Shown here piece by piece: positions 589-51,226 of a DNA stretch of 55,785 nt (position 1 is the stretch's first letter; each line of letters begins with the position of its first letter). Below the pieces are notes generated by a model. It saw only the letters and a list, made by a program, of their open reading frames with translations. It was not told where the DNA came from and made no database searches. Both the position numbers and the translations under genes were made by a program. The stretch is from a virus (lineage: Duplodnaviria; Caudoviricetes). The stretch spans positions 1 through 55,785 of IMG/VR virus record IMGVR_UViG_3300031652_000003. One strand, 5' to 3'.

Positions 589-942
589 TAACGATGGCGG
601 TATGGGTAGTTTGCCCAACGCACTGCGCCAGACCTGATTTGAAATACTAAACATTAAAATATTTAGCGATGGATTTTAGAAAATTACACGTAATAATTGG
701 AGAGTTAGAACTTGATAATATAAAACTGGCTTCCAAGGGAGATAAGAAGGCATTAAATATACTTGCATTGACACAAGCATTTAGAATAATTGAGCATAAG
801 TACAGAAAAGGAACTGAATGTATAAATTGTGGTTCAAAAAATACTCAAATTGAAATTATATGTAATGACTGTGCAAATATAGAACCGCGCGAGGGAATTG
901 ACCTCGATTTGAAAAACGGTAAATTACCTAAATTTGATGTTA
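589..942. mobile_element. attC-like element (TAAC...GTTA) with the 5' part of ORF 669 in its loop
   Basis: Left arm taacgatggcggtatgggtagtttgcc pairs imperfectly with right arm ggtaaattacctaaatttgatgtta. Confidence 0.6.
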
Positions 943-1100
943 GCTCACTTATTGATTTTAAAGAAATGCGTAAAAACTTCTTTAAAGAACACACATCTAC
1001 AGACTCATTCTTACATATACCTAAGGTAATTACACATCCACATAATCTATTTGAGTGGTTCAAAGCTGAAATAATTGAATATCTTAGGGCTGATTGCTAA
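669..1100 (+). CDS. Hypothetical protein with a CxxC..CxxC Zn ribbon, fused across a cassette junction at 939
   Basis: ORF track; CINC/CNDC. Confidence 0.7.
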   Translation: MDFRKLHVIIGELELDNIKLASKGDKKALNILALTQAFRIIEHKYRKGTECINCGSKNTQIEIICNDCANIEPREGIDLDLKNGKLPKFDVSSLIDFKEMRKNFFKEHTSTDSFLHIPKVITHPHNLFEWFKAEIIEYLRADC

Positions 1101-1157
1101 GGTTGAAACGTATACGGTCGTAGCTACCAATAATTGAAAATACAAAACTTTAAATAC

Positions 1158-1367
1158 ATGAAAGAAATAACAATAATATGCGATGTTTGCCAAAAAGTAC
1201 TGGATGATGAGTACATAAGATTAGGCAGTGAAAGCGAACAGGATTTACACTTTGAAAATAAGCTACCAAATAGGAAAGTTGGCGAAACTATAAATATAGC
1301 CAGATCTAGAGATTTACATTTCTGTTGTAAAGATCATTTTGTTAAGTACTTTTTTGAACAGGATTAG
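1158..1367 (+). CDS. Small hypothetical protein (CDVC...HFCC, possible Zn finger)
   Basis: ORF track; ATG at 1158 after an A-rich leader. Confidence 0.65.
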   Translation: MKEITIICDVCQKVLDDEYIRLGSESEQDLHFENKLPNRKVGETINIARSRDLHFCCKDHFVKYFFEQD

Positions 1368-1445
1368 TGGGTTTTATCATCTACAACAAGCGAATAAATA
1401 AAAACAAAAAAGGTACATAGTAATAATTTTAAAATATTTTTAGAG

Positions 1446-1778
1446 ATGGAAAATTTAAAACACAATTTAAGAAAACAGATTTGCATGGAAGTAGATGCAA
1501 AAAACATTGATGGTAAAACGGCAGCAAGACTGCTTGAATCTATTAATAATTTGTATGATGACAAATTAAAGAAATTAGAACATCATAGGGATACAACGAT
1601 AGGTTTATGGGCATTTGATTGTGCCCCTAAACAATTAATTGAAAAATTTGTAAATAGCCAAAACGATGCTTGTAGTTTATTTACGGAAGACGTTGATAAA
1701 CTAATAAAAGAGTGGGAGAGTTTTTGTAATAATAAAAATATAATCGAATCACCATTTTTTCAAATAAAAGAATATTAA
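1446..1778 (+). CDS. Hypothetical protein
   Basis: ORF track. Confidence 0.65.
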   Translation: MENLKHNLRKQICMEVDAKNIDGKTAARLLESINNLYDDKLKKLEHHRDTTIGLWAFDCAPKQLIEKFVNSQNDACSLFTEDVDKLIKEWESFCNNKNIIESPFFQIKEY

Positions 1779-1788
1779 CTAAAAAGAC

Positions 1789-2124
1789 ATGAAAAAAATA
1801 GAAAAACTCCCTAAATGGGAATACGAAAAAGCAAAGCAGATTGTTTCAGAATACGAAGCTCAATTCTCTTTATCTTTTGTTAAAGGGCATTTTTCTATTA
1901 ATGATTTAGAAATCTATTCAGAATCAATTAGCGTTCCTAAATTAACTGAAAAGATATTTGATGAGCGATGTTGTTGTGTATTAGAACAAGAATTGAATAA
2001 GCGAGTAAACGGCGTTGAATGGGCTAATACTGATGATATGGGGCATTTGGTTATAAGCTTTTACAGAAGAACAGTAACAGATGAAGATATCAAAGCTGTT
2101 ATTGACTCTTTAAATGCCCTTTAA
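1789..2124 (+). CDS. Hypothetical protein whose C-terminal part is a cassette (1879-2125)
   Basis: ORF track; the stop codon is the TAA of TAAC. Confidence 0.7.
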   Translation: MKKIEKLPKWEYEKAKQIVSEYEAQFSLSFVKGHFSINDLEIYSESISVPKLTEKIFDERCCCVLEQELNKRVNGVEWANTDDMGHLVISFYRRTVTDEDIKAVIDSLNAL

Positions 2125-2125
2125 C
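1879..2125 (+). mobile_element. Integron-like cassette with perfect 14-bp complementary ends
   Basis: gttaaagggcattt (1879-1892) / aaatgccctttaac (2112-2125). Confidence 0.75.
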
Positions 2126-2244
2126 GGTTAATTTATGTTGTCGTGGCTGCCATCAAAAAGCTACACAATTTAAAACAAATAAAAACTTAGATATGAGTAC
2201 AGAAAATTCAAATACCAAACAGCCACACACTACAGATAGTATTA
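2122..2244. mobile_element. attC-like hairpin with GTTA decayed to ATTA, carrying the start of ORF 2193
   Basis: taacggttaatttatgttgtcgtggctg vs cagccacacactacagatagtatta. Confidence 0.6.
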
Positions 2245-2885
2245 TGCTTTCGGTGGTTAAAGTCGATTTTTCAAAACTTATCGGTAATAAATATCCACTT
2301 GAAACTAAAATGGCAATATTGGACTGGATGCTTAAGACAGGCAAGGGGTTTGACCACCAACACGGATGGAATAGAAATGGGATTAATAAATCTTTACTTG
2401 ATTATTCAGCAAACAATCACAATACTCCTGTTTGTTTGCCAAAAAACAAAGATTATAATTTATTTTTTGATGCCTTATTTGCAAGAGCTGTTTATGCACA
2501 AGAAAATAAACCTCTAAAAAAATGGAGAGAAAAGGAATCCGTTAAGCCAAACAAGTATCGTATGTTAAAATTTAACGATGCGGTTCCAGTATGTGAGCAA
2601 AAATATTTTTCATGGCTTATTGGAGATATTTTTAAGTTTGATGGAAAGCTTCTGAAAAAGAAATTACATCATCCTGAATATTTAAACCGAACCGAACCAA
2701 AAATACTCTGGATATCAATTTCCACAATTGGAAATGGTTGGATGGTTCAATATCAATTTTCATTTAAAGAATATAATTATGAACCAGGTTGGACAAATGG
2801 TTATCATCAAAATGAAAATGAATCTATTTGGAAATTTCTAAAACGCAGCTATGATGAATTATGTACTGTCATAGCTAAAACATAA
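2193..2885 (+). CDS. Hypothetical protein in cassette 2241-2886 (attatgcttt / aaaacataac)
   Basis: ORF track; stop overlaps TAAC. Confidence 0.75.
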   Translation: MSTENSNTKQPHTTDSIMLSVVKVDFSKLIGNKYPLETKMAILDWMLKTGKGFDHQHGWNRNGINKSLLDYSANNHNTPVCLPKNKDYNLFFDALFARAVYAQENKPLKKWREKESVKPNKYRMLKFNDAVPVCEQKYFSWLIGDIFKFDGKLLKKKLHHPEYLNRTEPKILWISISTIGNGWMVQYQFSFKEYNYEPGWTNGYHQNENESIWKFLKRSYDELCTVIAKT

Positions 2886-3114
2886 CGGTTTATGTATGGA
2901 AAGCATACAACAAGCGAATAAATACCATATAAAAAAATATTAACTAAAAATAATGATATGAAAAGAATGAAACTTTATAATCGGAAACAAACAATTAGAG
3001 CTATGAAAGTAGCTTTTATTACACTCATAGTTATTATAGCTGCCGTTCTTATTTTAATAAATTGCTCTTCTTTTTAACTTATGATAATATTTGTTAAACT
3101 ATAATCAAAAAAAC

Positions 3115-3330
3115 ATGAATAATTTAGAAAATACAACCGGACAACCTCCTAAATGGGAGCACAAAATTGTAATAGATAAATACTTAGGTTATGGTATTAT
3201 GGATGAAATAAACCAACTTGGACAACAGGGATGGGAAATGGTTTCATCTACTAGTGTTGTAGTTGAAGGTACAACTACTCAAATAAATTATTTGTTCAAG
3301 AGGCTTAAAAGACAATCATTAAACAATTAA
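3115..3330 (+). CDS. DUF4177-like small protein
   Basis: KWEHKIV...INQLGQQGWEMVS...YLFKR motif. Confidence 0.7.
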   Translation: MNNLENTTGQPPKWEHKIVIDKYLGYGIMDEINQLGQQGWEMVSSTSVVVEGTTTQINYLFKRLKRQSLNN

Positions 3331-3473
3331 GATGTACCTAGGATTATGAAAAAGCAGCAATTTACCAATATTTTAATAACATGTTTTCAAACATTACATA
3401 AATGTGGCCCATAAAAAATGCATTTTATATGAAAGTTTTATGATTTTATAGTTGATTATTCAAATATTAATGT

Positions 3474-3481
3474 TATATTTG
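3474..3481 (+). promoter_or_regulatory. Bacteroidota -7 promoter box
   Basis: TATATTTG matches TAnnTTTG in an AT-rich intergenic region. Confidence 0.6.
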
Positions 3482-3633
3482 TTAAAGAAAACAATGAGAT
3501 ATTAATTTAAAACTTGAGCATTTAAAATGGAATCCAGAGGCTGATTTTTTAAAGCCAATGATTGAAAGAAGAAAAACAGAATTAACTCAGTTGCAAGAAA
3601 GATTAGATTACTTATTTGAAAAAACTTGTTAAA

Positions 3634-3957
3634 ATGGGAGCAGGAGGAAAAAGAGAAGGAGCGGGGCGCAAGCCTTGTTCCGATAAAAAACAAACAGTTG
3701 CTTTATATATAGAAACTTCAATTATTAACGCACTTGGTGGCCTTGAAAGCACAAAGCAAATCCTTTATAGTTTTGCAAAAACTGAGGCGGGTTGGGAAAA
3801 GAATAAGAATACTTGTACTAAATCTTATGAATGCGTTATTGACCAACAAAGTGATCTGCTAAAGGCTTGGCTGGTATGGAGATTAAAGCATCCGTATAGT
3901 GATTTCAGCACACAGGATTATGATATAGGAGAATTTTTAAAAGCCTATAATGATTAG
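3634..3957 (+). CDS. Small DNA-binding-like protein (GGKREGAGRKP N-terminus) with an appended C-terminal module
   Basis: Motif typical of small phage or antitoxin-like DNA-binding proteins. Confidence 0.6.
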   Translation: MGAGGKREGAGRKPCSDKKQTVALYIETSIINALGGLESTKQILYSFAKTEAGWEKNKNTCTKSYECVIDQQSDLLKAWLVWRLKHPYSDFSTQDYDIGEFLKAYND

Positions 3958-3997
3958 AAAATGATATTATTACATAACAATTTAAAACTATTGAATT

Positions 3998-4315
3998 ATG
4001 AAAACAAGCAAAAAAGAGATAGATTATTCATATATCAACAATAATAATTTTACCAAAGATGCGCGCAAGCACACATCATGCAACCACGAGCTTGCTAAAG
4101 ATGAAATTTGGTTAGGTAATACAAGTGGAGTTGATATTCCTAAACACTATGCTTCATTAAAGACTGTTAGATTGGGAGAGCAAGCATATTGTATAAAAGG
4201 AAAGCCTTTAAGTAGGGATTATTACAGACCATTGATTCTGAACAAATCCGAGCAAGCTCAACACGAGGAAATATGTAAGAAAAGATTTATAGAGGCTCAA
4301 ATGAGATACAATTAG
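3998..4315 (+). CDS. Hypothetical protein
   Basis: ORF track. Confidence 0.65.
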   Translation: MKTSKKEIDYSYINNNNFTKDARKHTSCNHELAKDEIWLGNTSGVDIPKHYASLKTVRLGEQAYCIKGKPLSRDYYRPLILNKSEQAQHEEICKKRFIEAQMRYN

Positions 4316-4404
4316 TAGTATTTGAGATAACAAAAAAAATAAATTAACCTGCCTTTGCTCCTTTAGAAGTCTGGAGTTTGGGGAACAAACAAACATAAAA
4401 CATC

Positions 4405-4689
4405 ATGAAATCTCTTAATGAAAACTTAGCTAAAAAAATACCAGCGATAATTACATCGATCACTCTAGCTGTTGTAGCATATTTTTTATTATCATGTTCG
4501 AATCCTCAACAATTAACCGAGCCTAATTATAACGATAGAATTGTTGTAGGATATTCAAAGAACATGAAGTATTACAAAGTTGTCGATCAGAATGAGATTT
4601 CTAGAACGGATATCCGTATTGATAGTATTGTTAGGCCTGTAGGTTCTGTTTTTATTTCAAAAAACAGGGGTGTTTATTGTAGATATTAG
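4405..4689 (+). CDS. Putative lipoprotein
   Basis: Hydrophobic stretch followed by an LLSC lipobox. Confidence 0.55.
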   Translation: MKSLNENLAKKIPAIITSITLAVVAYFLLSCSNPQQLTEPNYNDRIVVGYSKNMKYYKVVDQNEISRTDIRIDSIVRPVGSVFISKNRGVYCRY

Positions 4690-4720
4690 TGAAATTTTAA
4701 GCGGCTTACTTTTACCGCAT

Positions 4721-5063
4721 GTTAGCAAATCGTAAAGCGAACGGATTATGAGCAAGAAATTATATTTTAAGGATGGCGATGATGAAAAATGTTTCCAATT
4801 AAGCTACTTTAAATGGCTACTTGACTATGATAACTTAGATGAAATTACTGTGTGTGAAGCGCAACCGCAAGATGTAGAAGGTTTCTTTTGGTGTAGGGAA
4901 TACGAAACTGCTATGGATAAAAACGAAGGTGGTTGCGGGTGGAGTTGCAAAGGATACTTACCTCGAAATGGTTTTAATGGTTGCTGTAAACATTACTCAC
5001 TTAAATTTTATGAACCGACATGTAAATGTTTAACGATACGCAAGTGAGCGTATGTTTGCTAAC
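4721..5063 (+). mobile_element. Integron-like cassette holding ORF 4748-5047
   Basis: gttagcaaa (4721) / tttgctaac (5055-5063), followed by the conserved site. Confidence 0.75.
4748..5047 (+). CDS. Cys-rich hypothetical protein
   Basis: ORF track. Confidence 0.7.
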   Translation: MSKKLYFKDGDDEKCFQLSYFKWLLDYDNLDEITVCEAQPQDVEGFFWCREYETAMDKNEGGCGWSCKGYLPRNGFNGCCKHYSLKFYEPTCKCLTIRK

Positions 5064-5094
5064 AAGCGAATAAATACCACGTACGAACACGTAC
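5060..5094. repeat. Conserved array-end site (copies at 1384, 2908, 5060, 5442, 6212, 8368, 12049, 15879, 46183, 48134, 48909, 49214, 51177)
   Basis: YAAC-AMGCGAATAAATACCA-Y-GTACG-N4-CGTAC; the palindrome starts 21 nt after the first base of YAAC in six copies. Confidence 0.9.
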
Positions 5095-5139
5095 AGTAAA
5101 AAATATTTTGGTTTAAAAAACTCAAAAACAAAAATAAAG

Positions 5140-5418
5140 ATGGGAGTTGATGCAAAATTATTAAACAAAAAAACTGGAGATAAAATATACATTGACAGGT
5201 ATTACAATCTACAGAATAATTATACACATTACTTTGATGAAGCTAATAAGTTGAGTGGAGATGGAATGGAACGAGATGAGCTTGTTGAATTATGTGATGA
5301 TTTGATAACATTATCCCATTTAAGTACAGAAATGTTAATAGATATACGCGATAATGTGAAAAAATTAAATAAAGAAGATAGGTTTATCATTATAGATGAA
5401 AATAATGATAAATACTGA
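5140..5418 (+). CDS. Hypothetical protein
   Basis: ORF track. Confidence 0.65.
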   Translation: MGVDAKLLNKKTGDKIYIDRYYNLQNNYTHYFDEANKLSGDGMERDELVELCDDLITLSHLSTEMLIDIRDNVKKLNKEDRFIIIDENNDKY

Positions 5419-5625
5419 TATGTGTAGCCTTTTATTGCCTACAACGCGAATAAATATTTTAGAATTTATTTTAAAACTCAAAAAACTATGAAAGCTAAAT
5501 TAGAACAAGAATGGCGAGTATATTACATAAAGCATCAGATAGCTTGTGCCAAAAAAGCTGGAATTGAAGTGATAATCAAATGTCCAACTAAAATGAATTG
5601 ATATGTTGTCCTTAAAAAAAAAATA

Positions 5626-5940
5626 ATGAAACGAATTTATATAAGTGGAAAAATAACAGGTTTAGACACTCTTGAAGCAGCAAGAAAGTTTCAAGATGCA
5701 GAACATTACCTAATCATGAATTATGATAACGTAGAGATTGTGAATCCTATGAGAAAAGTACCTCATAAAAAAGAAAAGACGTGGGAACAATGCATGATTG
5801 GAGATATAAGCTTATTGTTTGGATGCGATACTATTTATATGCTTGATAATTGGGAAAGTTCGAAAGGAGCAAGAATAGAATGTAGTATAGCAAAAGAAAT
5901 GAGTAAGAATATATTATTTCAAAGTGCGTTGGGAAATTAA
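5626..5940 (+). CDS. DUF4406 / nucleoside 2-deoxyribosyltransferase-like protein
   Basis: IYISGKITG...NP...W..CM..DI..L..CD.IYML.NW..SKGARIE. Confidence 0.8.
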   Translation: MKRIYISGKITGLDTLEAARKFQDAEHYLIMNYDNVEIVNPMRKVPHKKEKTWEQCMIGDISLLFGCDTIYMLDNWESSKGARIECSIAKEMSKNILFQSALGN

Positions 5941-5970
5941 CGCTAAATCTAAATTAATACAGTACGAATT

Positions 5971-6225
5971 ATGAAAAAGATAGATAAAATATTTGATGAC
6001 CTACATTACGAGCTGATAACTGAGAAGCAAGCAAAACAGCAAGTGTTGGATTTATTTAGTATTAGCGGTTGTTACTCAATAACATTTGGTAGGGACTTGA
6101 AATGTAAAGTAAAAGTTACAAATGGTGCACCAGAGGTTGAAGCCGCCATGAATGGTTGGGGCGACAATATAAGTTTAAGCGATATTTCAGTAGATAAACT
6201 GCAATTACCGCTAACACGCGAATAA
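5971..6225 (+). CDS. Hypothetical protein fused across cassette 6061-6215
   Basis: attagcggt / accgctaac ends. Confidence 0.65.
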   Translation: MKKIDKIFDDLHYELITEKQAKQQVLDLFSISGCYSITFGRDLKCKVKVTNGAPEVEAAMNGWGDNISLSDISVDKLQLPLTRE

Positions 6226-6298
6226 ATACCACGTGCGATTACGTACAGTGGGTAAAATAAATAATGATAATAAAATGGAAAAGAATTAAATATAAAAC

Positions 6299-6502
6299 AT
6301 GGAAAAATACAAGATTGCCGGACATAAGGTAGAGTTAATTAATGAGGATTGTTTGATATTCGGCCCTTATGCAATTGGGCTTCCTTTAGTTTTAGAGAAG
6401 ATTGATAAAGGGGATAAGAAAATAATCATGCATGATGGTGTCGAGATACCAATATCTCAACTAAAAGAAATTCAAGCTTGGATTAAAACATTAACGTTAT
6501 GA
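6299..6502 (+). CDS. Hypothetical protein
   Basis: ORF track. Confidence 0.6.
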   Translation: MEKYKIAGHKVELINEDCLIFGPYAIGLPLVLEKIDKGDKKIIMHDGVEIPISQLKEIQAWIKTLTL

Positions 6503-6726
6503 CACAAGAACAGATTGAAAAAGTAAATGGTATAGCAAATAAGCTTGCAAAAGAATTGTGGAGAAGTGAACACTTGGAATGCTTCGGGAACCTTGAAATT
6601 AAGCTACAAGAAATAGTTAAAAATTTAACTATACCTGATGTTGGCGAATCGGATTGTGTCCATTGTGGTGGTTCTGGTGAATTAGCTGGCGGTTTGGTAG
6701 GTTGTCACTATTGTGGCAACTATTAA
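6499..6726 (+). CDS. Hypothetical protein whose CxxCxG module lies in cassette 6640-6745
   Basis: gttggcgaa / tttgctaac pair with G:T wobbles. Confidence 0.65.
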   Translation: MTQEQIEKVNGIANKLAKELWRSEHLECFGNLEIKLQEIVKNLTIPDVGESDCVHCGGSGELAGGLVGCHYCGNY

Positions 6727-6792
6727 TAGCAAGCTGTTTGCTAACGTATTGTAATATGAAATAGGGCGAGATAACCAACAGAAATTGATTAA

Positions 6793-7629
6793 ATGAACGA
6801 TAAAAAAAAGGGGAGGCCAATTGGTATATTATATAATGACCATTTCCAAAATTCAAAGAAATATGGAACTCCGAAAGCGCAATTAATTATTGCTGATGTA
6901 CCATATAATTTAGGCAATAATGCCTATGCAAGTAATCCAGCTTGGTATAAAGATGGAGACAATAAAAATGGTGAAAGCGATCTTGCAGGAAAGGAGTTTT
7001 TTGATACTGACAAAAATTTTAATCCTGCTGAATTTATGCACTTTTGTAGTAAGATGCTAAGACCTGAACCAAAGGAAAAAGGACAAGCACCTGCAATGCT
7101 TTTATTTTGTGCTTTTGACCAGCAAATGTATTTTATAGAATTGGCTAAAAGATATGGATTAAAAAACCACATCAATTTAGTATTTCGAAAAAACTTTTCA
7201 GCTCAGGTTTTAAAAGCAAACATGAAAATTGTAGGTAATTGTGAATATGGATTGTGTTTATACCGGGAAAAGCTGCCAAAATTTAACAATAAAGGCAAAA
7301 TGATATTTAACTGTATTGATTGGGAGAAAGATCCAAATACAGTTAAGAAATTACACCCAACTCAAAAACCTATTGGATTATTGAAAAGATTAATTGAAAT
7401 ATTTACAGATGAAGGAGAGGTAATAATAGACCCTTGCGCAGGTAGTGGTAGTAGTTTAGTGGCGGCTATCCAATGTAATAGAAAAGCATATGGTTTTGAG
7501 ATAAAGAAAAATTTTTATACTGATGCTAATAACTGGATAAATGAAACATTGCAAGATAAATTAGATATTGAGCGATATGGATTTGCTAAAACAAGAATCG
7601 AAAAAGAAGGTGCAACTTTATTTTCATAA
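6793..7629 (+). CDS. DNA N6-adenine/N4-cytosine methyltransferase (beta class)
   Basis: DVPY catalytic motif, HPTQKP, DPCAGSGS SAM-binding motif. Confidence 0.9.
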   Translation: MNDKKKGRPIGILYNDHFQNSKKYGTPKAQLIIADVPYNLGNNAYASNPAWYKDGDNKNGESDLAGKEFFDTDKNFNPAEFMHFCSKMLRPEPKEKGQAPAMLLFCAFDQQMYFIELAKRYGLKNHINLVFRKNFSAQVLKANMKIVGNCEYGLCLYREKLPKFNNKGKMIFNCIDWEKDPNTVKKLHPTQKPIGLLKRLIEIFTDEGEVIIDPCAGSGSSLVAAIQCNRKAYGFEIKKNFYTDANNWINETLQDKLDIERYGFAKTRIEKEGATLFS

Positions 7630-8081
7630 TGCTTTTGTAAAAGCAAGTATGGAGTTATAAAACTCAATTATAGGTGACACATATCACCACAACAATTCAA
7701 ACATTATTTGCGCTATATCGTATACTCTAATAAAAACTATCATGAATTACGAAGCGCACATACAGGTTTTCACAAAAACAATTATTCCTAATGCCACTTT
7801 TGAAGCATTAGCGGAGCTAGAGCAAGAATTCAAAGCTCAGTATGATAAAGTTGAAACTATTATATACAAAGCAATAAAAACTAAAATTGAACAACATGAA
7901 AAATATAGCAATTAAATCAGCCGAACAAGGAATAGCCTTATTCAACACTAATCACGGCGAATTCATAACTTCAGTAGAAGATCTCAGTCCATCAGCTAAA
8001 CTAGCTCGCGCTATAATATTAACAATATCGCATCCTGGAGAGGTTAGTTTTGATAGTGGTAAAGGTGATTGTGAGTTGTTT

Positions 8082-8205
8082 TAACGTTTTGTGTAAGGCA
8101 TCGTTGCGATTTTATAACTTAAACACAAAGAAATGAATAAAGCAAAATCAGGAACCCAGACAGATGGCAAAGAACTAGCTAAGCAATGTGCTTTACATGT
8201 TGTTA
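8082..8205. mobile_element. attC-like hairpin containing the start of ORF 8133
   Basis: taacgttttgtgtaaggcatcgttgc vs gcaatgtgctttacatgttgtta. Confidence 0.75.
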
Positions 8206-8357
8206 GTGAGAGTAATTTGTTTGAATGCCCTGCGTGTGATCAAGTAGCATGTGAGGTTGTTGAAGAATTTATAAGCAAGGCAAACGAAAAAAGAAGCTAC
8301 GATATAGATGTTACGCACTGCGTTTGTAGAAATTGTGGTCATAGTTGGTGGGATTAA
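8133..8357 (+). CDS. Zn-ribbon protein whose ribbon lies in cassette 8202-8371
   Basis: CPAC...CRNC; gttagtgaga / tcttgctaac ends. Confidence 0.7.
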   Translation: MNKAKSGTQTDGKELAKQCALHVVSESNLFECPACDQVACEVVEEFISKANEKRSYDIDVTHCVCRNCGHSWWD

Positions 8358-8556
8358 TCATTCTTGCTAACAAGCGAATAAATACCATGTACAATTTCGT
8401 ACATTAAAAACTAAAACATGATAGTATTAATTGTAGTATTTTTAACTATTCCTTTCTTCTCAGCATTTATTTTTATTTCAAAATATGCAAGAGATTTGAA
8501 AGATGACAATGAAAGTATTTATAATCAGATTATAAAATAAATCTTTTTATGTAAAC

Positions 8557-8600
8557 ATGACAAATATCATTGAAATACCTGATTATTGGTGTTATTTTTA
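8557..8600 (+). promoter_or_regulatory. ATGAC-N4-RTCAT palindrome plus -7 box 22 nt downstream
   Basis: atgacaaatatcat, then tattttta at 8593. Confidence 0.75.
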
Positions 8601-8621
8601 TCTCAAACAAAAATCAAGGAT

Positions 8622-8894
8622 ATGAAAATTATAGAAGCAATAAACGCCGATACCGATATGTGTGAAATAGAATTATCAATAGGTGATGATCGGATGTCTA
8701 AAGAAGATAGAGAAGCTAACGTAACTGTTTACTTTGATTGGGAATGGGACGACGGCAGAAGAGTTGTAAGTGAGATTAAACCAGTAAGAATGGAGGATAT
8801 TCACTTCTATGAAAACCCAGGAAACTACTTTGCCGTTTTAAATTGGGCTAAAGAATTGGTGACTATTGACTATATTGAAAACGTAATTAATTAA
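8622..8894 (+). CDS. Acidic hypothetical protein
   Basis: ORF track. Confidence 0.6.
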   Translation: MKIIEAINADTDMCEIELSIGDDRMSKEDREANVTVYFDWEWDDGRRVVSEIKPVRMEDIHFYENPGNYFAVLNWAKELVTIDYIENVIN

Positions 8895-8905
8895 TCCTTA
8901 ATAAT

Positions 8906-9379
8906 ATGAAAACACATTGGAAGAAACTCGAAAACCCCGATTACATAGGAGCGTATAGTTTAGACGATGGCAAAGATTTAATAGTAACAGTCGAAAGTGT
9001 CAAGCGCGAAATGGTGACTGGCCAAGGAGGTAAAAAAGAGGAATGTACGATAGCCTATCTTAAAGGTCAGAAACCCTTTATATTGAATAGAACTAACATG
9101 AAAATGATTCAAAAGATTTACGGCACTCCATATATTGAGGAATGGGTAGGTAAAAAGTTGACTTTGTATGTTGCTAAGATTAGGGCATTTGGCGAAGATA
9201 ATGTTGAATGCCTAAGAATACGCGAACAAGCTCCAGTAAAGCCAGATTTCAACCCCAATCATGCTAAGTGGAGTGGTGCGATAAAAGCAATAAAGGATGG
9301 AAGTTTTACTATCGATAAATTAAAAGAGATATACACTATTAGTAAGGAAAATGAAAAACTACTCAATGAAAGTATTTAA
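8906..9379 (+). CDS. Putative single-strand annealing or recombination protein
   Basis: Directly upstream of the exonuclease; function inferred from context. Confidence 0.5.
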   Translation: MKTHWKKLENPDYIGAYSLDDGKDLIVTVESVKREMVTGQGGKKEECTIAYLKGQKPFILNRTNMKMIQKIYGTPYIEEWVGKKLTLYVAKIRAFGEDNVECLRIREQAPVKPDFNPNHAKWSGAIKAIKDGSFTIDKLKEIYTISKENEKLLNESI

Positions 9380-10151: not shown

Positions 10152-10220
10152 GCGTAAGAATAGAAATAGACGAACGCCCGGGTTAAACTGGCTAATGAAA
10201 AATCTAAACATTGAAAAGTA

Positions 10221-10670: not shown

Positions 10671-10672
10671 TT

Positions 10673-11056
10673 ATGAAAGAATTATTAAAAACACTTGAAG
10701 AAATAAAAGAGTGGCAAATGAACCATGTACGACTTGCAAGAACAACAGAAGTTTACAAACTTGCTGAAAAAGCACAACAGCAGTTAAAAATTTTAAATAC
10801 ACCTGTTGTAGAACAAGCGAATGGACAACCGGATGACAAGTATTACTTACATGTTAGCCATAGATGGGTTATTTATAAGAAAAAACGACCTGATGAAGAT
10901 AATAAAGTTTATAAAACATTGAATGCGGATCTAAAGGTTAATTATACGCTTTACAGTTGCGGCAGGTGGTGTACTGAACAAGGAGAACCAGAAATAATAG
11001 GGTGGTTAGATGCAAATGAGGATGATATAAATGAGTTTTGCGAGTGCTATGAATAG
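10673..11056 (+). CDS. Hypothetical mosaic protein
   Basis: ORF track; contains right-arm-like GTTAGC at 10853. Confidence 0.6.
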   Translation: MKELLKTLEEIKEWQMNHVRLARTTEVYKLAEKAQQQLKILNTPVVEQANGQPDDKYYLHVSHRWVIYKKKRPDEDNKVYKTLNADLKVNYTLYSCGRWCTEQGEPEIIGWLDANEDDINEFCECYE

Positions 11057-11624: not shown

Positions 11625-11631
11625 TTAATAC

Positions 11632-42598: not shown

Positions 42599-42840
42599 AA
42601 TATGTAGGGTTAGTTATGACAATTATCATAGCTGCAATGGTGATAGGCCGGAATATAAAAAAAGGCTACCAGAATTACGTAGATAATAAAATTGATATTA
42701 TGGATACAAAGATAACGTCAATACAAAGAGAAGTGCACGACAATAAGCACAACAATCAACGAGAACATGACGCGATTAAAGAAGAGTTTTTATCAAGGGT
42801 TAATATGATTTTTGAATGGATAAAATCGCAATCAAATTAA
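42562..42840 (+). CDS. Holin-like protein (1 TM plus coiled coil)
   Basis: Topology and position before the endolysin. Confidence 0.5.
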   Translation: MVEQTINIYRALEYVGLVMTIIIAAMVIGRNIKKGYQNYVDNKIDIMDTKITSIQREVHDNKHNNQREHDAIKEEFLSRVNMIFEWIKSQSN

Positions 42841-44877: not shown

Positions 44878-44921
44878 ATGACATTTATCATTGTTTTTTG
44901 GGGATTGCATAAGTATATTTA
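44878..44921 (+). promoter_or_regulatory. ATGAC-N4-RTCAT palindrome plus -7 box at +22
   Basis: atgacatttatcat, then tatattta at 44914. Confidence 0.75.
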
Positions 44922-46175: not shown

Positions 46176-46650
46176 TTGACTACAACACGCGAATAAATAC
46201 ATATACGATTTTGTACATTAAAATAAACTGTAAAAAAATTATGAAAATTAAAGTAGGAATTAAAAATAAGGAGTATTATGCTGGAATATATATTTGCAGC
46301 GGTGGAATTTCTTCATTAGTAAATTATAGACAAGGTAAAAAACTTTGGAAAGTTCTAGGAGTGTTTAGGTTAAAAAATTTATGGATTGGGTTGATTGGAA
46401 AACGAACCAAATAATTTTTTATTGTTTATGATTTCTGTTATAAATACGTAAGATTATGGAAAAAGTAAGTTTAGATTTATCTTATAATGATAAAGACAAA
46501 AAGGAATACGAATCTTTTTTTGAGCAGTTAGAAGAAGAGGGATGGCAGCTTGAAAATACATTTATAGATCAAAGAAAAGGTAAAGGCAATTATTATTACC
46601 GCACAATGATTAGAAGGATTGTGAAATAATTTTTTTATAAAACACAAAAC

Positions 46651-46694
46651 ATGACATTTGTCATTTCGTATAACATAATTATCAATTAAATTGC
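46651..46694 (+). promoter_or_regulatory. Perfect ATGAC-N4-GTCAT palindrome plus -7 box at +22
   Basis: atgacatttgtcat, then taaattgc at 46687. Confidence 0.78.
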
Positions 46695-46899
46695 AAATAA
46701 AAAAGCTATGATAGTAAAAGCAAAACTAGGAAGCAAAATTAGATGTTTCGAGATTCCATCTTTTTTAGAAGAAAAGTTTCTCGATGATATTGAGAAACAT
46801 ACTCCTATAGGCATGATGATATCTTACACTCAGTTAATAAGATGGTTTAGGCATAATAAAGTTGCCATTAATGAAGTGTTAATATAATATATATCCTAA

Positions 46900-47157
46900 A
46901 TGATTGAAGAATTAATTCATATAAACACTGAAAAGAAAATAAGAACTCATAGATTAATATCGGGGGAGCAAGATAACGAGAAGTGTATTTACATTTATCA
47001 TTATTACACTAAAGGGTATTTCGATATTAAGGAGTCTAAAGATAAACTAAAGCGTAGAAACCCAGAGGATGAAGCTTTTTTATTAGATGCAAATAAATTC
47101 GGAATTAAACTATTAAAAATCCATGATCATGAAATGGAACAAAAAAGAGGTAAGTAA
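46900..47157 (+). CDS. Hypothetical protein
   Basis: ORF track. Confidence 0.55.
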   Translation: MIEELIHINTEKKIRTHRLISGEQDNEKCIYIYHYYTKGYFDIKESKDKLKRRNPEDEAFLLDANKFGIKLLKIHDHEMEQKRGK

Positions 47158-47386
47158 ATTCGAGCAAGTTCAGGTTAATGTTCACTACAAGACAAGAAAG
47201 CAGGTTGAATACAAAGGCGAAAAAACAACCATTAACTATGACAAGAAAATTTGCGGATTAATAGTTAGTTCTGGCGATAATGATATTCAGTTCTTGCCTA
47301 ATAATGACGATATTACTAGGAGTATACTGTATTCTCAAATTGTGAATATTACACCTCCCGAGCCGGATTATTATCAAACGACATAA
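47123..47386 (+). CDS. Hypothetical protein
   Basis: ORF track. Confidence 0.55.
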   Translation: MIMKWNKKEVSKFEQVQVNVHYKTRKQVEYKGEKTTINYDKKICGLIVSSGDNDIQFLPNNDDITRSILYSQIVNITPPEPDYYQTT

Positions 47387-47414
47387 TATAAGTTTTATAA
47401 CTAAAATTATAACA

Positions 47415-47660
47415 ATGATTAAAGAAATAGTAGAAGCAACGATTAAAGAATGTTACCCTAAATTTGTAAGCGTAACAACACTACCAAGCGATTTTGAAAC
47501 ACAGGTGCTTAACGAAGTAAGAGAGCAAGTTAAAAATTTGAATATACCTACTGTTAGCAACCGAAGGGAACTGCTAATTTCCTACACTTTAAAGATGCTT
47601 AGTTGCACAGACGAACACGCAGAAACAATGGTTGATAGTTATTTGAGCTTATATGGCTAA
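47415..47660 (+). CDS. Hypothetical protein fused across a GTTAGC junction at 47553
   Basis: KNLNIPTVSNRRELL. Confidence 0.6.
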   Translation: MIKEIVEATIKECYPKFVSVTTLPSDFETQVLNEVREQVKNLNIPTVSNRRELLISYTLKMLSCTDEHAETMVDSYLSLYG

Positions 47661-47683
47661 TATTTTGCATGTGGTCTTAAGGC

Positions 47684-47730
47684 TAACGGTAAGAATAAAT
47701 GGGCGTTTTAATGCCATTTATTTATTGTTA
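47684..47730. mobile_element. Short attC-like hairpin (47 bp)
   Basis: taacggtaagaataaatgggcg / tgccatttatttattgtta. Confidence 0.75.
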
Positions 47731-48137
47731 CCAACTGCACGGTATTAACAACTAAAATTAAATTGAAATGATATACTTAACGGTAATTAACACGATAGCG
47801 ATAATTTACATATTAACGCACAAACAATTTTCTATTCATAAAAACGAGACATTCTCAAACAATACGTTGTTAGGTTATGGTTTGTATTATAAGAACAAAA
47901 GGAGATTATATACACCCATAAGAAATGCAAGAAGAACAGAGCTTAACGAGGAAGTTCACAGGATGATAAATGACACAGTTAACAAGCATTACACAATAAG
48001 AGCTAAATTTAGCTGGATAAAAACCATAACCGATGCTGAGCAGTTCAGAAAAGACTATGAAGTAGTAGATAGAAAATTAGTTAACGAGCTTGTGGATAAC
48101 TTTAAATTGGAACACCAACAGTAGTGTTGTTGGTAAC
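47727..48137 (+). mobile_element. Integron-like cassette with ORF 47768-48124
   Basis: gttaccaactgcac / gtgttgttggtaac (12 of 14 complementary), then the conserved site. Confidence 0.8.
47768..48124 (+). CDS. Hypothetical protein with an N-terminal TM
   Basis: ORF track. Confidence 0.65.
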   Translation: MIYLTVINTIAIIYILTHKQFSIHKNETFSNNTLLGYGLYYKNKRRLYTPIRNARRTELNEEVHRMINDTVNKHYTIRAKFSWIKTITDAEQFRKDYEVVDRKLVNELVDNFKLEHQQ

Positions 48138-48358
48138 ACGCGAATAAATACCATGTACGGTTTAGTACACTAAAACTAAGATTATGGAGAAATATTTCAA
48201 TCCAAAACCAAATTATAACCCAATCTTAGGATGTGTTTTCAAGGGCGATGTAATAAAGAGGGAATCTCTCAATAATGAATCATTAGATAGAATTGAATCT
48301 AGGAAAACTAAGCGGTGTTTATAAAAAGAGAGTGTAATAACTTAAATAAAATTGAGCA

Positions 48359-48898
48359 ATGGAAATAACTAATAAAATAGTTGAAAGCTATAAATTTAAA
48401 CGAATAAACAACAGTATGTGGCGCAGAGATGAAATGACATTACAAAATGCATACACTCATAGAGGCGACAATATCTACGAGAAAATACTAAACACCAAAA
48501 AAGCTTATAAGGCATGTTATAAAGGTAAATTTGTAGCAATGATTGAAACTGAAATGGGACTACACCATTTAGTTTATATGTATTTTGAGCGGGGCGCAAA
48601 TATGGAAATTAAGACGTATGTAATATCCAGTGAAACAGATAGCCAAGTAATACAAGCTAAAAACATAGCGTCTGTAATATGTAAATACGGTTTAATTTGT
48701 GGCGATATAAATAAAGAAATTGTAGCCATAATTGAACTTGAGCGAGGGGTAGAGTTTTTAAAGCAATTTTCGAGCATGACACAAGCAAATGAATTATTAC
48801 CGCGTGTTATCAAAATGCAGCTTCTTTCCGACGACCAACTTAGAATATTAAATGATACTTATAATAGATTACTTGGCGAAGAACCTACAAAATTATAG
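48359..48898 (+). CDS. Hypothetical mosaic protein
   Basis: Internal ttgagcgRggg repeats and a GTTA junction at 48806. Confidence 0.6.
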   Translation: MEITNKIVESYKFKRINNSMWRRDEMTLQNAYTHRGDNIYEKILNTKKAYKACYKGKFVAMIETEMGLHHLVYMYFERGANMEIKTYVISSETDSQVIQAKNIASVICKYGLICGDINKEIVAIIELERGVEFLKQFSSMTQANELLPRVIKMQLLSDDQLRILNDTYNRLLGEEPTKL

Positions 48899-48942
48899 TT
48901 ATTTGCGCTAACAAGCGAATAAACACACTAAAACTTAATACA

Positions 48943-49173
48943 ATGAAACAAAAATCGAGTGTACTAGAAAAAATAAGACAAAGAATGCCATTGGAAACTA
49001 AACTTAAAATATCGTTTCAGATGCACGATTATGAAAACTGGAAAGATGGTGAATATTTTGGAGATACTGAAAAGTACGTTAAAATAGCACTTGATGAAAT
49101 AAAGGAACATATACAAATACGCTATCCTAATGTTAATATAGATAAATTGTGTTTATACCGTGTTGTAAAATAA
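48943..49173 (+). CDS. Hypothetical protein
   Basis: ORF track. Confidence 0.6.
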   Translation: MKQKSSVLEKIRQRMPLETKLKISFQMHDYENWKDGEYFGDTEKYVKIALDEIKEHIQIRYPNVNIDKLCLYRVVK

Positions 49174-49390
49174 CATAAGCGACATAAAGAATTTACTGGT
49201 GGGGAATGCGCTACAATAAGCAAATAATACAAACTATAATAAAATTAAACACAAAGATTTATTATGTCAATATTAATTTGTATATTTGCCTAATAGAACG
49301 CGGGAAGCCTCTTTGTAATGCTCACTAACTCACGTCTTCGAAGCCGGATTAATTTCCGGTTTATTTAAAACTTTAAAATTACAATTGTCA

Positions 49391-49570
49391 ATGAAACTAA
49401 TTAAAACATCTGAGAAAGTATTGGTTTGGATGCATCGGACAGGTAAGACTCAATTAGAAGTTTCTGATGCTATGAATATAAATAGACAAGCCTTGGCATC
49501 TAAAATAAAAGATAATGTTTTTAGTGTGTCCGATCTAATGAATCTCAAGCGTTTAGGGTTTAACGAATAG
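49391..49570 (+). CDS. XRE/Cro-like HTH regulator
   Basis: KTQLEVSDAMNINRQALASKIK. Confidence 0.7.
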   Translation: MKLIKTSEKVLVWMHRTGKTQLEVSDAMNINRQALASKIKDNVFSVSDLMNLKRLGFNE

Positions 49571-49630
49571 ATTTTTTTGGCCATAAATTTTAACAAATGT
49601 AAATTTTTATTATTAATTAAAATTAAGATT

Positions 49631-49897
49631 ATGAAAGAAATTAAACACACAGCTCGTGGGGGTACTGATATTTGTATTTACGAACATACTGAGACTCAAA
49701 TTATAGGTAGCTTCTTTAATGATAAAGATAAACCTGAAGTCGGAGATATTATAAATACAGCCTACGAAAAACCTAATTACGTTGTAGTTAAAATCATCGA
49801 AAATAGAGATGCTTGTATTCATTCTGATTGCAGAAAAAATCCAAACAATGCCTACTTTATTCTTGAGGTAGATAGAGTAAATCCTCAACGACTCTAA
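49631..49897 (+). CDS. Hypothetical protein
   Basis: ORF track. Confidence 0.6.
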   Translation: MKEIKHTARGGTDICIYEHTETQIIGSFFNDKDKPEVGDIINTAYEKPNYVVVKIIENRDACIHSDCRKNPNNAYFILEVDRVNPQRL

Positions 49898-50013
49898 TAA
49901 GAATAATAGCCAAAAAATAGCGAGAAACTTCTATAACCTCGCATAATTAACAAAGAGATATGAATGTAAAAACTATTGCAGACGTCTTCGACAAGGTAAA
50001 GGATAATGTGCTA

Positions 50014-50137
50014 TAACAGTAACTTGTAAGTGTAGTTTGGGATTAAACCCACTACATGACCAAGATAGTAATAACTTAATAAATTGATATATAGATGAAT
50101 AACGCAGCGAAACCCAAATTACATTTACAAAATGTTG
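50014..50137. mobile_element. attC-like hairpin containing the start of ORF 50095
   Basis: taacagtaacttgtaagtgtagtttggg vs cccaaattacatttacaaaatgttg. Confidence 0.8.
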
Positions 50138-50304
50138 TGCACCGTTTATTAAGGGTAGTTTTGACACCCCTTATAATTGTGACCATGTGCATAGTTGCTT
50201 TAAGTGCCGTAATTAGCTTACCAATTTGGATAGTGAGTGGCAAAACGATTATACCGTATGCTGTAAATTTAGCCCATAAACACATGGAATTAGCTTGGGA
50301 TTAA
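50095..50304 (+). CDS. Small membrane protein whose TM part lies in cassette 50134-50316
   Basis: gttgtgcacc / ggtgcataac ends. Confidence 0.65.
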   Translation: MNNAAKPKLHLQNVVHRLLRVVLTPLIIVTMCIVALSAVISLPIWIVSGKTIIPYAVNLAHKHMELAWD

Positions 50305-50486
50305 ATGGTGCATAACGTATGGTTGTATAGTGTAGCGTGAATTACTCACTAAACTACAATTGAAAAGCTACTGTTAAAAATTATTTTTTAGGGAGGGTTT
50401 TTATTTTTTTTGTGTAAATAGTTTGTATTTAAAAAGTATTTACTATATTTGTATAGCAATAATGCAGATAACTTTAAATTAAGATT

Positions 50487-50933
50487 ATGAAAACTTATTT
50501 AATAGCCAGAGCTAAAATTGAAGAAAGAGACTATAAAAAAGGATTTGACTCTATTGTGAATTTAGATTACATGGGTGCTTCTGAGTATGAATGGGGAGCA
50601 ATGCCAGAATCTCTAGTCAGAACTAGAAAGAACATTAACGATTACACTTATTTAGATGTACCAATTAAAAATATAAGCGTAACCGTATTTTGCCACAACG
50701 ATAATAAAAGCGATGTAAAAAAGTACTTAACAGAACTTGCTAACGGCAAAATGCGAACCAAGAACGGAAATCACTTTGATTGGTACGTACAAAACGAAAA
50801 GAAAAGTGATTTTACTTATGTTAGAGATAGGGTGAATTTTTGGTGGGACATTGAAAACGATTTGATGTTTTGGATTAAAAGCCCTGATTTTGAAATTAAG
50901 TTTAAGGATATTATTAAAGTAAAACCAGAATAA
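50487..50933 (+). CDS. Hypothetical protein, first gene of the enclosed module
   Basis: LDYMGASEYEWG motif; own TATATTTG promoter at 50444. Confidence 0.75.
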   Translation: MKTYLIARAKIEERDYKKGFDSIVNLDYMGASEYEWGAMPESLVRTRKNINDYTYLDVPIKNISVTVFCHNDNKSDVKKYLTELANGKMRTKNGNHFDWYVQNEKKSDFTYVRDRVNFWWDIENDLMFWIKSPDFEIKFKDIIKVKPE

Positions 50934-51091
50934 TGGCAACTAAGAAAGTAACTATTAGCTTAACTCAAGAACAACAAGACAAAGCTAAAGAAGATAGCAA
51001 AGCCATATTTGGCAAAGAAAACCTAAGTGGATATATTCAAATTCTTATCCAAAATGGTTTTGAAAAAACCAAAGAGCGTGGGCAAAAATAA
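50933..51091 (+). CDS. Ribbon-helix-helix-like protein (52 aa, not in the ORF track)
   Basis: MATKKVTISLT...ENLSGYIQILI; TAATG coupling to the previous gene. Confidence 0.65.
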   Translation: MATKKVTISLTQEQQDKAKEDSKAIFGKENLSGYIQILIQNGFEKTKERGQK

Positions 51092-51151
51092 TTTTGGATT
51101 AACCCACTGAGCTTGATTAAATGAACGAAACAGCTATACACTATACAACGT

Positions 51152-51180
51152 GTTAGCTTTTCGTTTTAATGAAAGCTAAC
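51152..51180. mobile_element. Empty 29-bp cassette
   Basis: gttagcttt-tcgttttaatg-aaagctaac, then the conserved site. Confidence 0.7.
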
Positions 51181-51226
51181 ACGCGAATAAATACCATGTA
51201 CGGTTTCGTACACTAAAACTAAGATT

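Follow-up and report, generated by a model that had tools for sequence, protein, structure and literature searches.

The window analyzed here is the whole 55,785-bp virus record IMGVR_UViG_3300031652_000003, the genome of an uncultured, flavobacterial-type phage with direct terminal repeats. Its intergenic elements include a genuine family, structured and in part new: inverted GTTAG...CTAAC arms that bracket genes or gene ends, a conserved block that we term box A, and local hairpins, some with an invariant loop. The GC content is ~30-35%, and all long open reading frames (ORFs) lie on the + strand in our ORF maps. By matches to Pfam and PHROG, 18.8-26.4 kb encodes the portal, capsid and terminase, and genes for tail and lysis extend to ~44.8 kb; 1-18 kb and 45-55.8 kb hold small ORFs, mostly unknown, together with replication and recombination genes. 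The non-structural genes encode a primase-helicase, a replication initiator, two DNA methyltransferases, an RNA ligase, a GIY-YIG endonuclease, a MazG-like pyrophosphohydrolase and three general recombination proteins, an exonuclease (9351-10151), NinB/Orf (10221-10670) and NinG/Rap (12103-12555). No Pfam or PHROG match in the window indicates an RNA polymerase, a sigma factor or a recombinase, and the tyrosine (PF00589) and serine (PF00239) recombinase profiles give 0 matches at E ≤ 1, in agreement with the original prediction, which described the accessory genome as a system of integron-like gene cassettes in a phage with no integrase. The portal is ~31% identical to Polaribacter phage portals, and because 65 of the 70 phage records that match it, each at <60% identity, are Flavobacterium, Polaribacter or Cellulophaga phages, a Flavobacteriia-type host appears probable. 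Megablast of positions 1-14000 against the phage database returned no match.

Complementary arms bracket genes and gene ends

Nine segments had been predicted to begin with GTTRRR and to end with their own reverse complement. All nine pairs lie where they were placed, but the quality of pairing is uneven: counted as contiguous Watson-Crick base pairs (bp) from the outer ends, it reaches 14 at 1879/2125 and 9 at 4721/5063, 11717/12052, 47727/48137 and 51152/51180, and only these five have at least 9; it falls to 5 at 8202/8371, to 3 at 6640/6745 and 50134/50316 and to 0 at 6061/6215, which starts with ATT. Allowing G·U lengthens the stems to 14 bp (8200-8373), 17 bp (50132-50318) and 16 bp (1877-2127). 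We find that the common core of the arms is GTTAGC (GTTRRY) and not GTTRRR, as strict GTTRRR-initiated 9-mer inverted repeats show no enrichment (1 in the window vs 0.36 in shuffles). GTTR-initiated 9-mer inverted repeats are enriched (8 vs 1.62 ± 1.17, with a maximum of 5 in 100 dinucleotide shuffles), and all 8 lie outside the 14-45 kb structural block. As a whole, 9-mer inverted repeats are barely enriched (315 vs 273 ± 23). A per-site duplex test of 20 sites, each compared with 300 random segments, gives p ~0.003 for five and 0.014-0.031 for three.

Three of the nine segments enclose a whole ORF (4748-5047, 11757-12044 and 47768-48124), and these ORFs are not paralogues. The first, which has a homologue in the distantly related phage G001, is enclosed by the stem at 4721-5063 (+ strand, as are all elements given here; arms 4721-4729 GTTAGCAAA and 5055-5063 TTTGCTAAC; p ~0.031), the second, a MazG-like NTP pyrophosphohydrolase gene, by that at 11717-12052 (arms GTTAGCGTT and AACGCTAAC; p ~0.003), and the third by that at 47727-48137 (arms GTTACCAAC and GTTGGTAAC with a GCAC/GTGT extension; p ~0.003). 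Segment 51152-51180 encloses only an 11-nt loop and no ORF, forming a compact or "empty" unit (51149-51183; 13-bp stem with a GTTAGCTTT core, loop TCGTTTTAATG, z -3.6) with box A directly 3'. The other five start inside an ORF (at 1879, 6061, 6640, 8202 and 50134). The 16-bp stem at 1877-2127 (14 Watson-Crick; p ~0.003) has its left arm within ORF 1789-2124 and the stop codon in its right arm (TTTAAC), and the 14-bp stem at 8200-8373 (including G·U; p ~0.024) has its left arm within ORF 8133-8357 and its right arm just past the stop. The stem at 6640-6745 (10 bp with 3 G·U; p ~0.12) starts within ORF 6499-6726 and ends in GCTAAC, which is also one edge of a 1.6-kb indel described below; the weak stem at 6061-6215 (ATTAGCGGT/ACCGCTAAC, outer A·C mismatch) starts within ORF 5971-6225 and is non-significant alone (p ~0.17). 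Two adjacent long stems at 50024-50318 (50024-50041/50113-50130, 18 bp, and 50132-50148/50302-50318, 17 bp; p ~0.003) lie around ORF 50095-50304 and overlap it. T(A/T)TA(C/T)-N4-T stands before the left arm and YGTTTT often after it; right arms without box A lead into a looser junction, type B, made of a G, then 4-10 nt, then ATG.

An alignment of 16 stems from five genomes on the GTTAG/CTAAC core (nine from the window, one each from G001 and L061, three from G007 and two from L126, all introduced below) reveals an inner extension that is unique to each stem, yet paired in each, which bears out the claim that the flanks differ between pairs but co-vary. The first 12 positions of these stems hold 155 Watson-Crick pairs, 19 G·U, 2 A·C and 16 others. 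A double-stranded palindrome diverging at random would yield G·T and A·C equally, and the G·U:A·C ratio of 19:2, a count that is partly biased as some stems came from a G·U-tolerant search, therefore indicates the sense strand. A genome-wide comparison, free of that bias, agrees: stems of at least 13 bp on the + strand number 102 vs 74.5 ± 8.1 in shuffles with G·U allowed, and 58 vs 61.8 ± 8.4 in the mirror test, with A·C allowed. For G·U-tolerant stems of at least 11 bp the generic excess is modest and is seen on both strands. We conclude that the stems are under selection, acting on the sense strand.

It is highly improbable that the elements have no function and are leftovers of duplicated intergenic DNA, of a small-protein coding motif (NL-x-IP-x-V-S) and of inverted repeats arising by chance in AT-rich DNA. 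Six left motifs are indeed coding, all in one frame (window 6630, 8192 and 47543; G001; G007 twice), four of them encoding NL.IP.V-like peptides, and this account would also fit the small excess of 9-mer inverted repeats at large and the 12 of 20 sites that are non-significant alone. It is already disfavoured by the compensatory changes in the 16 stems and in a conserved-loop hairpin, the five sites at p ~0.003, the restriction of box A to one strand, and conservation across phages that share almost nothing else.

The coding left-arm motif belongs to a small-protein family with the peptide (N)L-x-(I/P)-P-x-V-S/G in a single frame, found at 6499-6726, 8133-8357 and 47415-47660 in the window, at ~53420-53630 on the reverse complement of G001, and at 19959-20153 and 20832-21092 in G007; several members continue into a CxxC...CxxC zinc-ribbon-like tail. 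Stems that bracket only the variable C-terminal part of these proteins hint at domain swapping. Just inside both arms of the 11717-12052 stem lies a direct repeat, GAGYGKTGGCAAA (GAGYGNTGG(C)AAA; 11735-11749 and 12027-12041), whose left copy belongs to the ORF leader. The same repeat stands inside the arms of bracketed ORFs in G007 (20582-20594 and 20766-20780); it may represent a duplicated leader or one more joint for recombination.

Identical sites in inverted orientation, with spacers that differ from pair to pair, resemble heterospecific recombinase sites, and invertons, intragenic ones included, are common in Bacteroidota. The arms might accordingly be read as GTTAG-NNN/NNN-CTAAC recombinase sites with a private spacer, between which a host invertase flips an ORF or its 3' part. 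Upon inversion in silico the frame stays open for 27-44 codons in three of eight intragenic cases but closes within 0-9 codons in the other five, and four of eight bracketed genes rank within the top 13 of 88 for antisense openness. The G·U vs A·C asymmetry is unexpected for double-stranded sites, left and right arms are flanked by conserved blocks that differ, which leaves the structure asymmetric, and no strand-change joint is seen at the arms in contigs of sequencing runs X1 and X2, a weak point that extends to contigs only. We consider inversion very unlikely. As a separate observation, three minus-strand open frames are unusually long (11699-12040, 49613-49888 and 50076-50285) and cover genes 11757-12044, 49631-49897 and 50095-50304 almost fully (open fraction 0.97-1.00; ranks 1, 2 and 5 of 88); two of these three genes are stem-bracketed.

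Box A follows the right arm on one strand only

Box A (~45 nt, CTAAC-AMGCGAATAAATACCAYGTACG..CGTAC..TAAAAAC) lies directly 3' of the right arm and has the consensus CTAAC-A(A/C)-GCGAATAAATACCA-YGTACG-N4-CGTACA-N-TAAAAAC. A profile search finds seven full and four partial copies, 11 of 11 on the + strand and 0 on the - strand, all at 1.4-12.1 kb or 46.2-51.2 kb of the window. Matches by nhmmer at E<1e-3 are confined to 2908-12100 and 46183-51230, so that the predicted lack of sites in the structural module holds for box A. From the start of GCGAATAA to the next ATG we measure 28-81 nt, with 44 nt in four of the 11 copies. The full copies are at 5057-5110 (right arm plus AAGCGAATAAATACCACGTACG..CGTAC..; next ATG 5140), 6209-6266 (next ATG 6299), 8365-8420 (next ATG 8418; the second edge of the 1.6-kb indel), 12046-12100 (next ATG 12103, NinG/Rap), 46183-46231 (a diverged CTACAAC subtype; next ATG 46241), 48131-48187 (next ATG 48184) and 51175-51230 (next ATG 51227). 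The partial copies are at 1383-1400 (AACAAGCGAATAAATA only; E 0.18), 2908-2930, with a short local hairpin, GTATG-GAAAG-CATAC, just 5', 5444-5456, whose leader duplicates that of the 5057 copy, and 48906-48925 (next ATG 48943).

We take TAnnTTTG, or more fully TTTG...TAnnTTTG, to be the Bacteroidota promoter consensus; by inspection it is found in no box A copy and in none of the left motifs of the window. Promoter-like sites of this host type and U-tract terminators, for example that at 16019-16049, occupy other intergenic sites, and because these and an operator-like palindrome are located elsewhere, the box A copies sit inside operons. The left motif T(A/T)TA(C/T)-N4-T or box A might nonetheless be promoters, each bracketed ORF forming its own transcript, as in strict promoter cassettes of the PeSL type (see Discussion). 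In G001, L126 and G007 the left arm follows TATATTTG, TATATTTT or TATATTTA, which resembles what we take to be the Bacteroidota -7 element, and AAC-N16-CGTA of box A resembles promoters of the extracytoplasmic function (ECF) type. The window's left motifs (TATACAACGT, TATACGCATT, TTTACCGCAT and others), however, are unlike TAnnTTTG, several of them are coding, and neither a sigma factor nor an RNA polymerase gene was found in the window; the ECF reading makes the invariant block GCGAATAAA the spacer, and CGTA is missing in four of 11 copies, for which reasons it was rejected. The strict promoter reading fits some relatives and not the window's own motifs, and we judge it to be quite unlikely.

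Three further candidates were rejected. Box A is not a mini-ORF (M-x-A-N-K/T-R-I-N-T...), as there is no variation at its third codon positions, and the 6218, 8374 and L061 copies do not conserve the stop and start; GTAC as a restriction or methylation target occurs at the level of chance (121 sites vs 120); and the strand bias of TAACG (78 vs 24) is mostly coding.

Local hairpins and an invariant loop

Nine imperfect TAAC...GTTA hairpins had been placed between the proposed cassettes. Three of these fold well, at 11632-11720 (z -4.3), 13970-14025 (z -3.6) and 47684-47730 (z -4.0), but the score of 50014-50137 is due to an internal 18-bp stem, two others are weak, and three (589-942, 13885-13937 and 50313-51155) are unsupported. 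The attC-like hairpin at 11632-11720 (TAACG...ATTGTTA) overlaps with its 3' end the left arm of the 11717 stem. The 62-nt hairpin at 13967-14028 (TGCTAAC...GTTAGCA) has a loop, TGACGATAGGAA, in common with a hairpin of Polaribacter phage P12002L, and that at 47684-47732, with the invariant loop GCGTTTTAATG, is of the same family as the published P12002L_attC1 site.

This conserved-loop hairpin (CGUUUUAAUG) is present in five copies, two in the window, one in L061 and two in P12002L. The loop CGTTTTAATG is invariant in all five, and eight of 13 predicted stem pairs stay paired despite changes on both sides. A fixed loop on a freely varying stem is the reverse of attC and is as expected of a protein-read site. 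Additional copies of CGTTTTAATG with one mismatch were rejected, since they occur at chance level in the window, and only the two exact copies are counted.

The same elements occur in otherwise dissimilar phages

The architecture recurs in four further phages, P12002L among them, and the element family spans flavobacterial phages with almost no other common content. The structural proteins of G001 (54.8 kb), a distant relative, are 29-53% identical to those of the window; this phage carries one full box A and a 16-bp stem whose left arm is inside an ORF. In L061, a metagenome contig, GTTAGCTG...CAGCTAAC surround a 171-codon ORF with no window homologue, and the order is the bracketed ORF, box A and then a homologue of window gene 5488-5601. 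L061 also carries a second repeated intergenic hairpin (CAATTGCC...GGGCTTT; reverse strand, ~40-90, 440-490 and 880-930) that is terminator-like and is absent from the window. G007 (37.5 kb, GC 40%) has only 137 nt in common with the window, from the left motif to 28 codons into the MazG-like gene, and an array of arm units at 19.8-21.1 kb; in L126 (GC 28%) one stem is of 14 bp and another, of 22 bp, encloses a complete 73-codon ORF.

On the early-gene strand of P12002L, the arm TTGTTAGGCAC at the 3' end of attC1 pairs 11/11 with GTGCCTAACAA, just past the stop of the methyltransferase gp35, and attC2, once reverse-complemented, corresponds to the stretch beginning with this right arm. The published divergent attC sites are therefore the two ends of one bracketing stem.

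In the viral contig collection a first box pattern matched only G001, a second added L066, where the context is unlike the element, and a pattern for the left arm and leader found G007 and L126. Eight metagenome contigs matched the box pattern; L061 is the one true relative, and we treat the other seven as chance because they have higher GC and lie in conserved sequence that looks protein-coding. The 47 matches in bacterial genome contigs include 0 in element context, five related viral records hold 0 box copies at up to 3 mismatches, and L049, whose primase is 70% identical, has no box copy. The terms "intergenic repeats" and "stem-loop" do not appear in the literature listing for Flavobacterium, Cellulophaga and Polaribacter phages, as far as that listing's text extends.

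Gene content differs between strains at and beside the elements

Related strains are present as short contigs (Logan contigs) in a second salt-marsh run, X2, and reveal three clear gene-scale indels. One contig joins 6746 to 8369, GCTAAC to GCTAAC, with loss of the 1.6-kb methyltransferase module; an 8-bp direct repeat, TTGCTAAC, stands at both edges. In another, 3997 is fused to 4405 through 6 bp of microhomology (ATGAAA) that two start contexts have in common, indicating that such events occur here without a special site; this deletion takes out gene 3998-4315 and its downstream spacer. The third lacks the GIY-YIG gene (14263->14936, the gap bridged by 10 other letters), in which the absent gene is a GIY-YIG/NUMOD3 homing endonuclease (14287-14907), a typical free-standing presence/absence polymorphism. 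Of the three indels, one ends at GCTAAC/GCTAAC and the other two lie away from GTT/AAC.

Two direct copies of box plus leader flank gene 5140-5418; L061 has one copy and lacks the gene at the homologous place, the pattern expected of recombination between repeats. Homology between L061 and the window crosses both arms into the "cassette", and that of G007 begins at the left motif. No circle, inversion or strand-change joint at the arms is reported in the X1 and X2 contigs, in which rare forms could go unseen.

The case for integron-like recombination

The original prediction holds that the phage gains and shuffles genes through integron attC sites and an IntI-like recombinase supplied in trans, probably by a Bacteroidota host, and this idea matches a published interpretation. 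In Qi et al. 2023 (PMC9892861), phage genomes are screened with IntegronFinder and HattCI, and clusters of attC sites without an integrase (CALIN) are reported in virulent phages, among them Polaribacter phage P12002L with two attC sites. Five of six sites recombined in the IntI1 assay, the exception being P12002L_attC1. By Table S3 of that paper, P12002L_attC1 is TGCTAAC...stem...TCGTTTTAATG...stem...ATTGTTAGGC, like window elements 47684-47732 and 51149-51183. P12002L and the window are also alike in accessory cargo that includes DNA methyltransferases, in lacking an integrase and in having a gene-bracketing stem (around gp35). The published account, in the portions available, gives two separate attC sites in divergent direction and leaves the bracket pairing, box A and the conserved loop undescribed.

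If this were true site-specific recombination, the TAAC...GTTA hairpins would be attC sites folded from single-stranded DNA, and a tyrosine recombinase in trans, IntI or other, would cut at G/TT of the arms, whose ends would pair in the excised circle. Several features are consistent with this. The arm ends fit CTAAC/GTTAG of classical attC, the aadA7 control (PMC9892861, supplementary Table S3) has identical TAACG...ATTGTTAGAC ends, and three hairpins of 47-89 nt fold well with TAAC/GTTA ends; read antisense, units 11632-12052 and 47684-48137 run cassette, then hairpin. P12002L attC1 and attC2 flank the methyltransferase gene gp35, whose ends pair 11/11, and the X2 indel 6746->8369 removes a methyltransferase module with GCTAAC on both sides. 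Classical attC sites (Mazel 2006, as cited in PMC2839356) are likewise imperfect palindromes with RYYYAAC/GTTRRRY-like ends, and classical cassettes, as generally described, are circles whose ends pair and that carry small accessory cargo, as in the window.

Against this, attC-type pairs (RYYYAAC...GTTRRRY, 57-141 nt) are not enriched (6 vs 5.2 ± 2.4 in shuffles; fully complementary, 0 vs 0.5), no R' site stands between any of the 11 box A right arms and the ATG of the next gene, and five of the nine "cassettes" start in ORFs and would cut a gene. Unlike classical integrons, the window has no integrase, no ORF-attC arrays, and sites in ORFs; unlike classical attC, it has a conserved loop in place of conserved L boxes, and sense-strand G·U. 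The hairpin keeps its loop and varies its stem, so that the conserved part is not the boxes beside R, and of the six sites assayed with IntI1 its homologue, P12002L_attC1, alone failed to recombine (PMC9892861). The 19:2 ratio of G·U to A·C in the stems, two of three clear X2 indels away from GTT/AAC, the continuity of window-L061 homology through both arms into the "cassette", and the lack of a recombinase in the phage itself also argue against it.

The integron integrase profile TIGR02249 scores above its curated cut-off in one of 401 sampled Bacteroidia-class genomes, the sample being the class of a Fluviicola metagenome-assembled genome and including one unpublished genome, G102, which is below the cut-off. 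What stands of the integron reading is the presence of real, pair-specific sites, confined to the accessory genome, with gene content that differs between relatives at or beside them; an enrichment of attC-type pairs and the integrity of five of nine cassettes are unsupported. On present evidence the integron label is not earned, and we regard site-specific recombination of the integron or integron-like kind (a CALIN) as unlikely.

Other features of the window

A 14-bp palindrome, ATGACAWWTRTCAT, occurs at seven sites (8557-8570, 12552-12565, 16075-16088, 17847-17860, 42616-42629, 44878-44891 and 46651-46664) vs 0.55 chance matches expected with both strands counted; most of these are intergenic and adjoin TAnnTTTG-like promoter elements, and a phage repressor or activator probably uses the palindrome as its operator. 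The longest inverted repeat of the genome, at 51827-51884 (25 nt, 96% complementary, 8-nt loop), lies inside the replication-initiator gene (51459-52280) and is a possible origin or regulatory site. The 215-nt gap 5' of the portal gene contains, at ~22160-22215, three tandem copies of ~15 nt each (ACTTAACATAATATT). A tRNA scan of the window with ARAGORN gives 0 tRNAs, and the structured region at 22016-22230, which receives no call, is therefore not a tRNA. No Rfam family matches the window at E ≤ 1.

Discussion

We favor, with about even confidence and on grounds read from sequence, the interpretation that these elements are RNA-level intercistronic modules that also serve as recombination joints, in the manner of the PeSL and SAS repeats discussed below. 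Accessory early genes would be separated by modular, strand-specific cis-elements acting on the sense transcript, in which the 3' arm of a small gene, ending in CTAAC, would pair with a GTTAG arm in its own 5' leader or coding region, and the pair-specific inner extension would keep each arm with its own partner. The 3' arm would be followed by box A (AMGCGAATAAATACCA, a small GTACG..CGTAC hairpin and an A-rich leader) or by a type-B G-N(4-10)-ATG junction, and then by the next gene, and some units would add a local hairpin with the invariant loop CGTTTTAATG on its free-varying stem. Such RNA structures may mark and insulate cistrons within polycistronic early transcripts, with possible roles in processing or stability, for example through double-strand-specific cleavage or as a barrier to exonucleases; box A may serve as a site for processing or binding and give the next gene a standard leader. 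We place the elements at the RNA level because they are strand-specific, lie within operons at a fixed distance from starts, accept G·U pairs and have a loop-specific hairpin among them. The blocks recur in a single orientation and are common to flavobacterial phages, so that they could double as joints, at which ordinary phage recombination, homologous or microhomology-driven and relying on the phage's own exonuclease, NinB/Orf and NinG/Rap and not on site-specific enzymes, would add, remove and swap small gene modules.

RNase III stems, among them the sites in T7 early mRNA and the long-range duplexes around 16S and 23S rRNA, offer one parallel. These too are intercistronic or gene-bracketing duplexes on polycistronic transcripts, and window stems of 13-22 bp are comparable. 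Many window stems, in contrast, are of 8-11 bp with a conserved core, and they are known here as predicted structures.

A second parallel is found in T4-type phages, in their promoter-early stem-loop (PeSL) cassettes (Arbiol et al. 2010, PMC2839356; Comeau et al. 2014, PMC4122927). These cassettes are short composite intergenic elements, repeated in plastic regions, that flank small ORFans and mark indels and replacements between relatives, and the authors of the papers drew the comparison with integron cassettes despite the lack of an integrase. The units of the window are likewise repeated in plastic regions, flank ORFans and mark indels between relatives. A PeSL, however, consists of a sigma-70-type promoter and a local terminator hairpin (PMC2839356, PMC4122927), whereas the window stems lead into AAGCGAATAAATACC or G..ATG with no U-tract, and their arms stand up to 775 nt apart around a gene, with sequence private to each pair.

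Similar in layout are the start-associated sequences (SAS) of Cluster K mycobacteriophages (Pope et al. 2011, PMC3203893), present in 11-19 copies and of unknown function with a role in translation suspected. SAS are asymmetric, conserved repeats in one orientation that stand 5' of the start codons of some non-structural genes, and in about half of the cases an imperfect inverted repeat, its spacer variable, comes first (extended SAS, ESAS), an arrangement comparable to that of the window. SAS are 13 bp long and stand directly at the start codon, with ESAS spacers mostly of 4-13 bp (PMC3203893), whereas box A is ~45 nt long and stands 28-81 nt upstream, the window's spacer runs from 5 to several hundred nt, and the sequences and hosts are unrelated. 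By analogy of layout the window element may work like SAS/ESAS; it is not a member of that family.

Several points weigh against an RNA role. Twelve of the 20 sites tested, including 6061-6215 and 6640-6745, are individually non-significant in the duplex test, and the 19:2 count carries the bias noted above. The GTTAG/CTAAC core is kept in sequence and not merely in pairing, which fits the attC R'/R'' consensus. Loops of 100-775 nt run through translated ORFs, and ribosomes would often melt such stems. The homologous sites of P12002L carry a published attC prediction, and in E. coli IntI1 recombined one of them, attC2 (PMC9892861). Finally, the X2 crossover at GCTAAC falls inside just 8 shared bases, which a site-specific event would also fit.

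A further reading, which we think rather unlikely, is that the pair-coded GTTAG-NNN...NNN-CTAAC arms form a recombination address system common to otherwise unrelated flavobacterial phages, in which a recombinase that is neither the phage's own nor a classical IntI would recognize the arms in folded or paired form and excise, insert or flip single genes and even their 3' parts. If so, the P12002L "CALIN" and the units of the window would be one new phage-borne cassette system.

Box A, the invariant-loop hairpin and the G·U bias had escaped the original prediction. The family is unusual in that its stems bracket whole genes or gene ends with pair-private sequence, in its invariant-loop hairpin, and in a grammar that is maintained across phages sharing almost no genes. 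Repeated intergenic modules are a way in which many phages organize and reshuffle small, fast-evolving early genes. The published attC claim for the sites of Polaribacter phage P12002L gains an alternative, testable reading, and whether these are RNA elements or recombination sites bears on how far phages count as carriers of integron cassettes.

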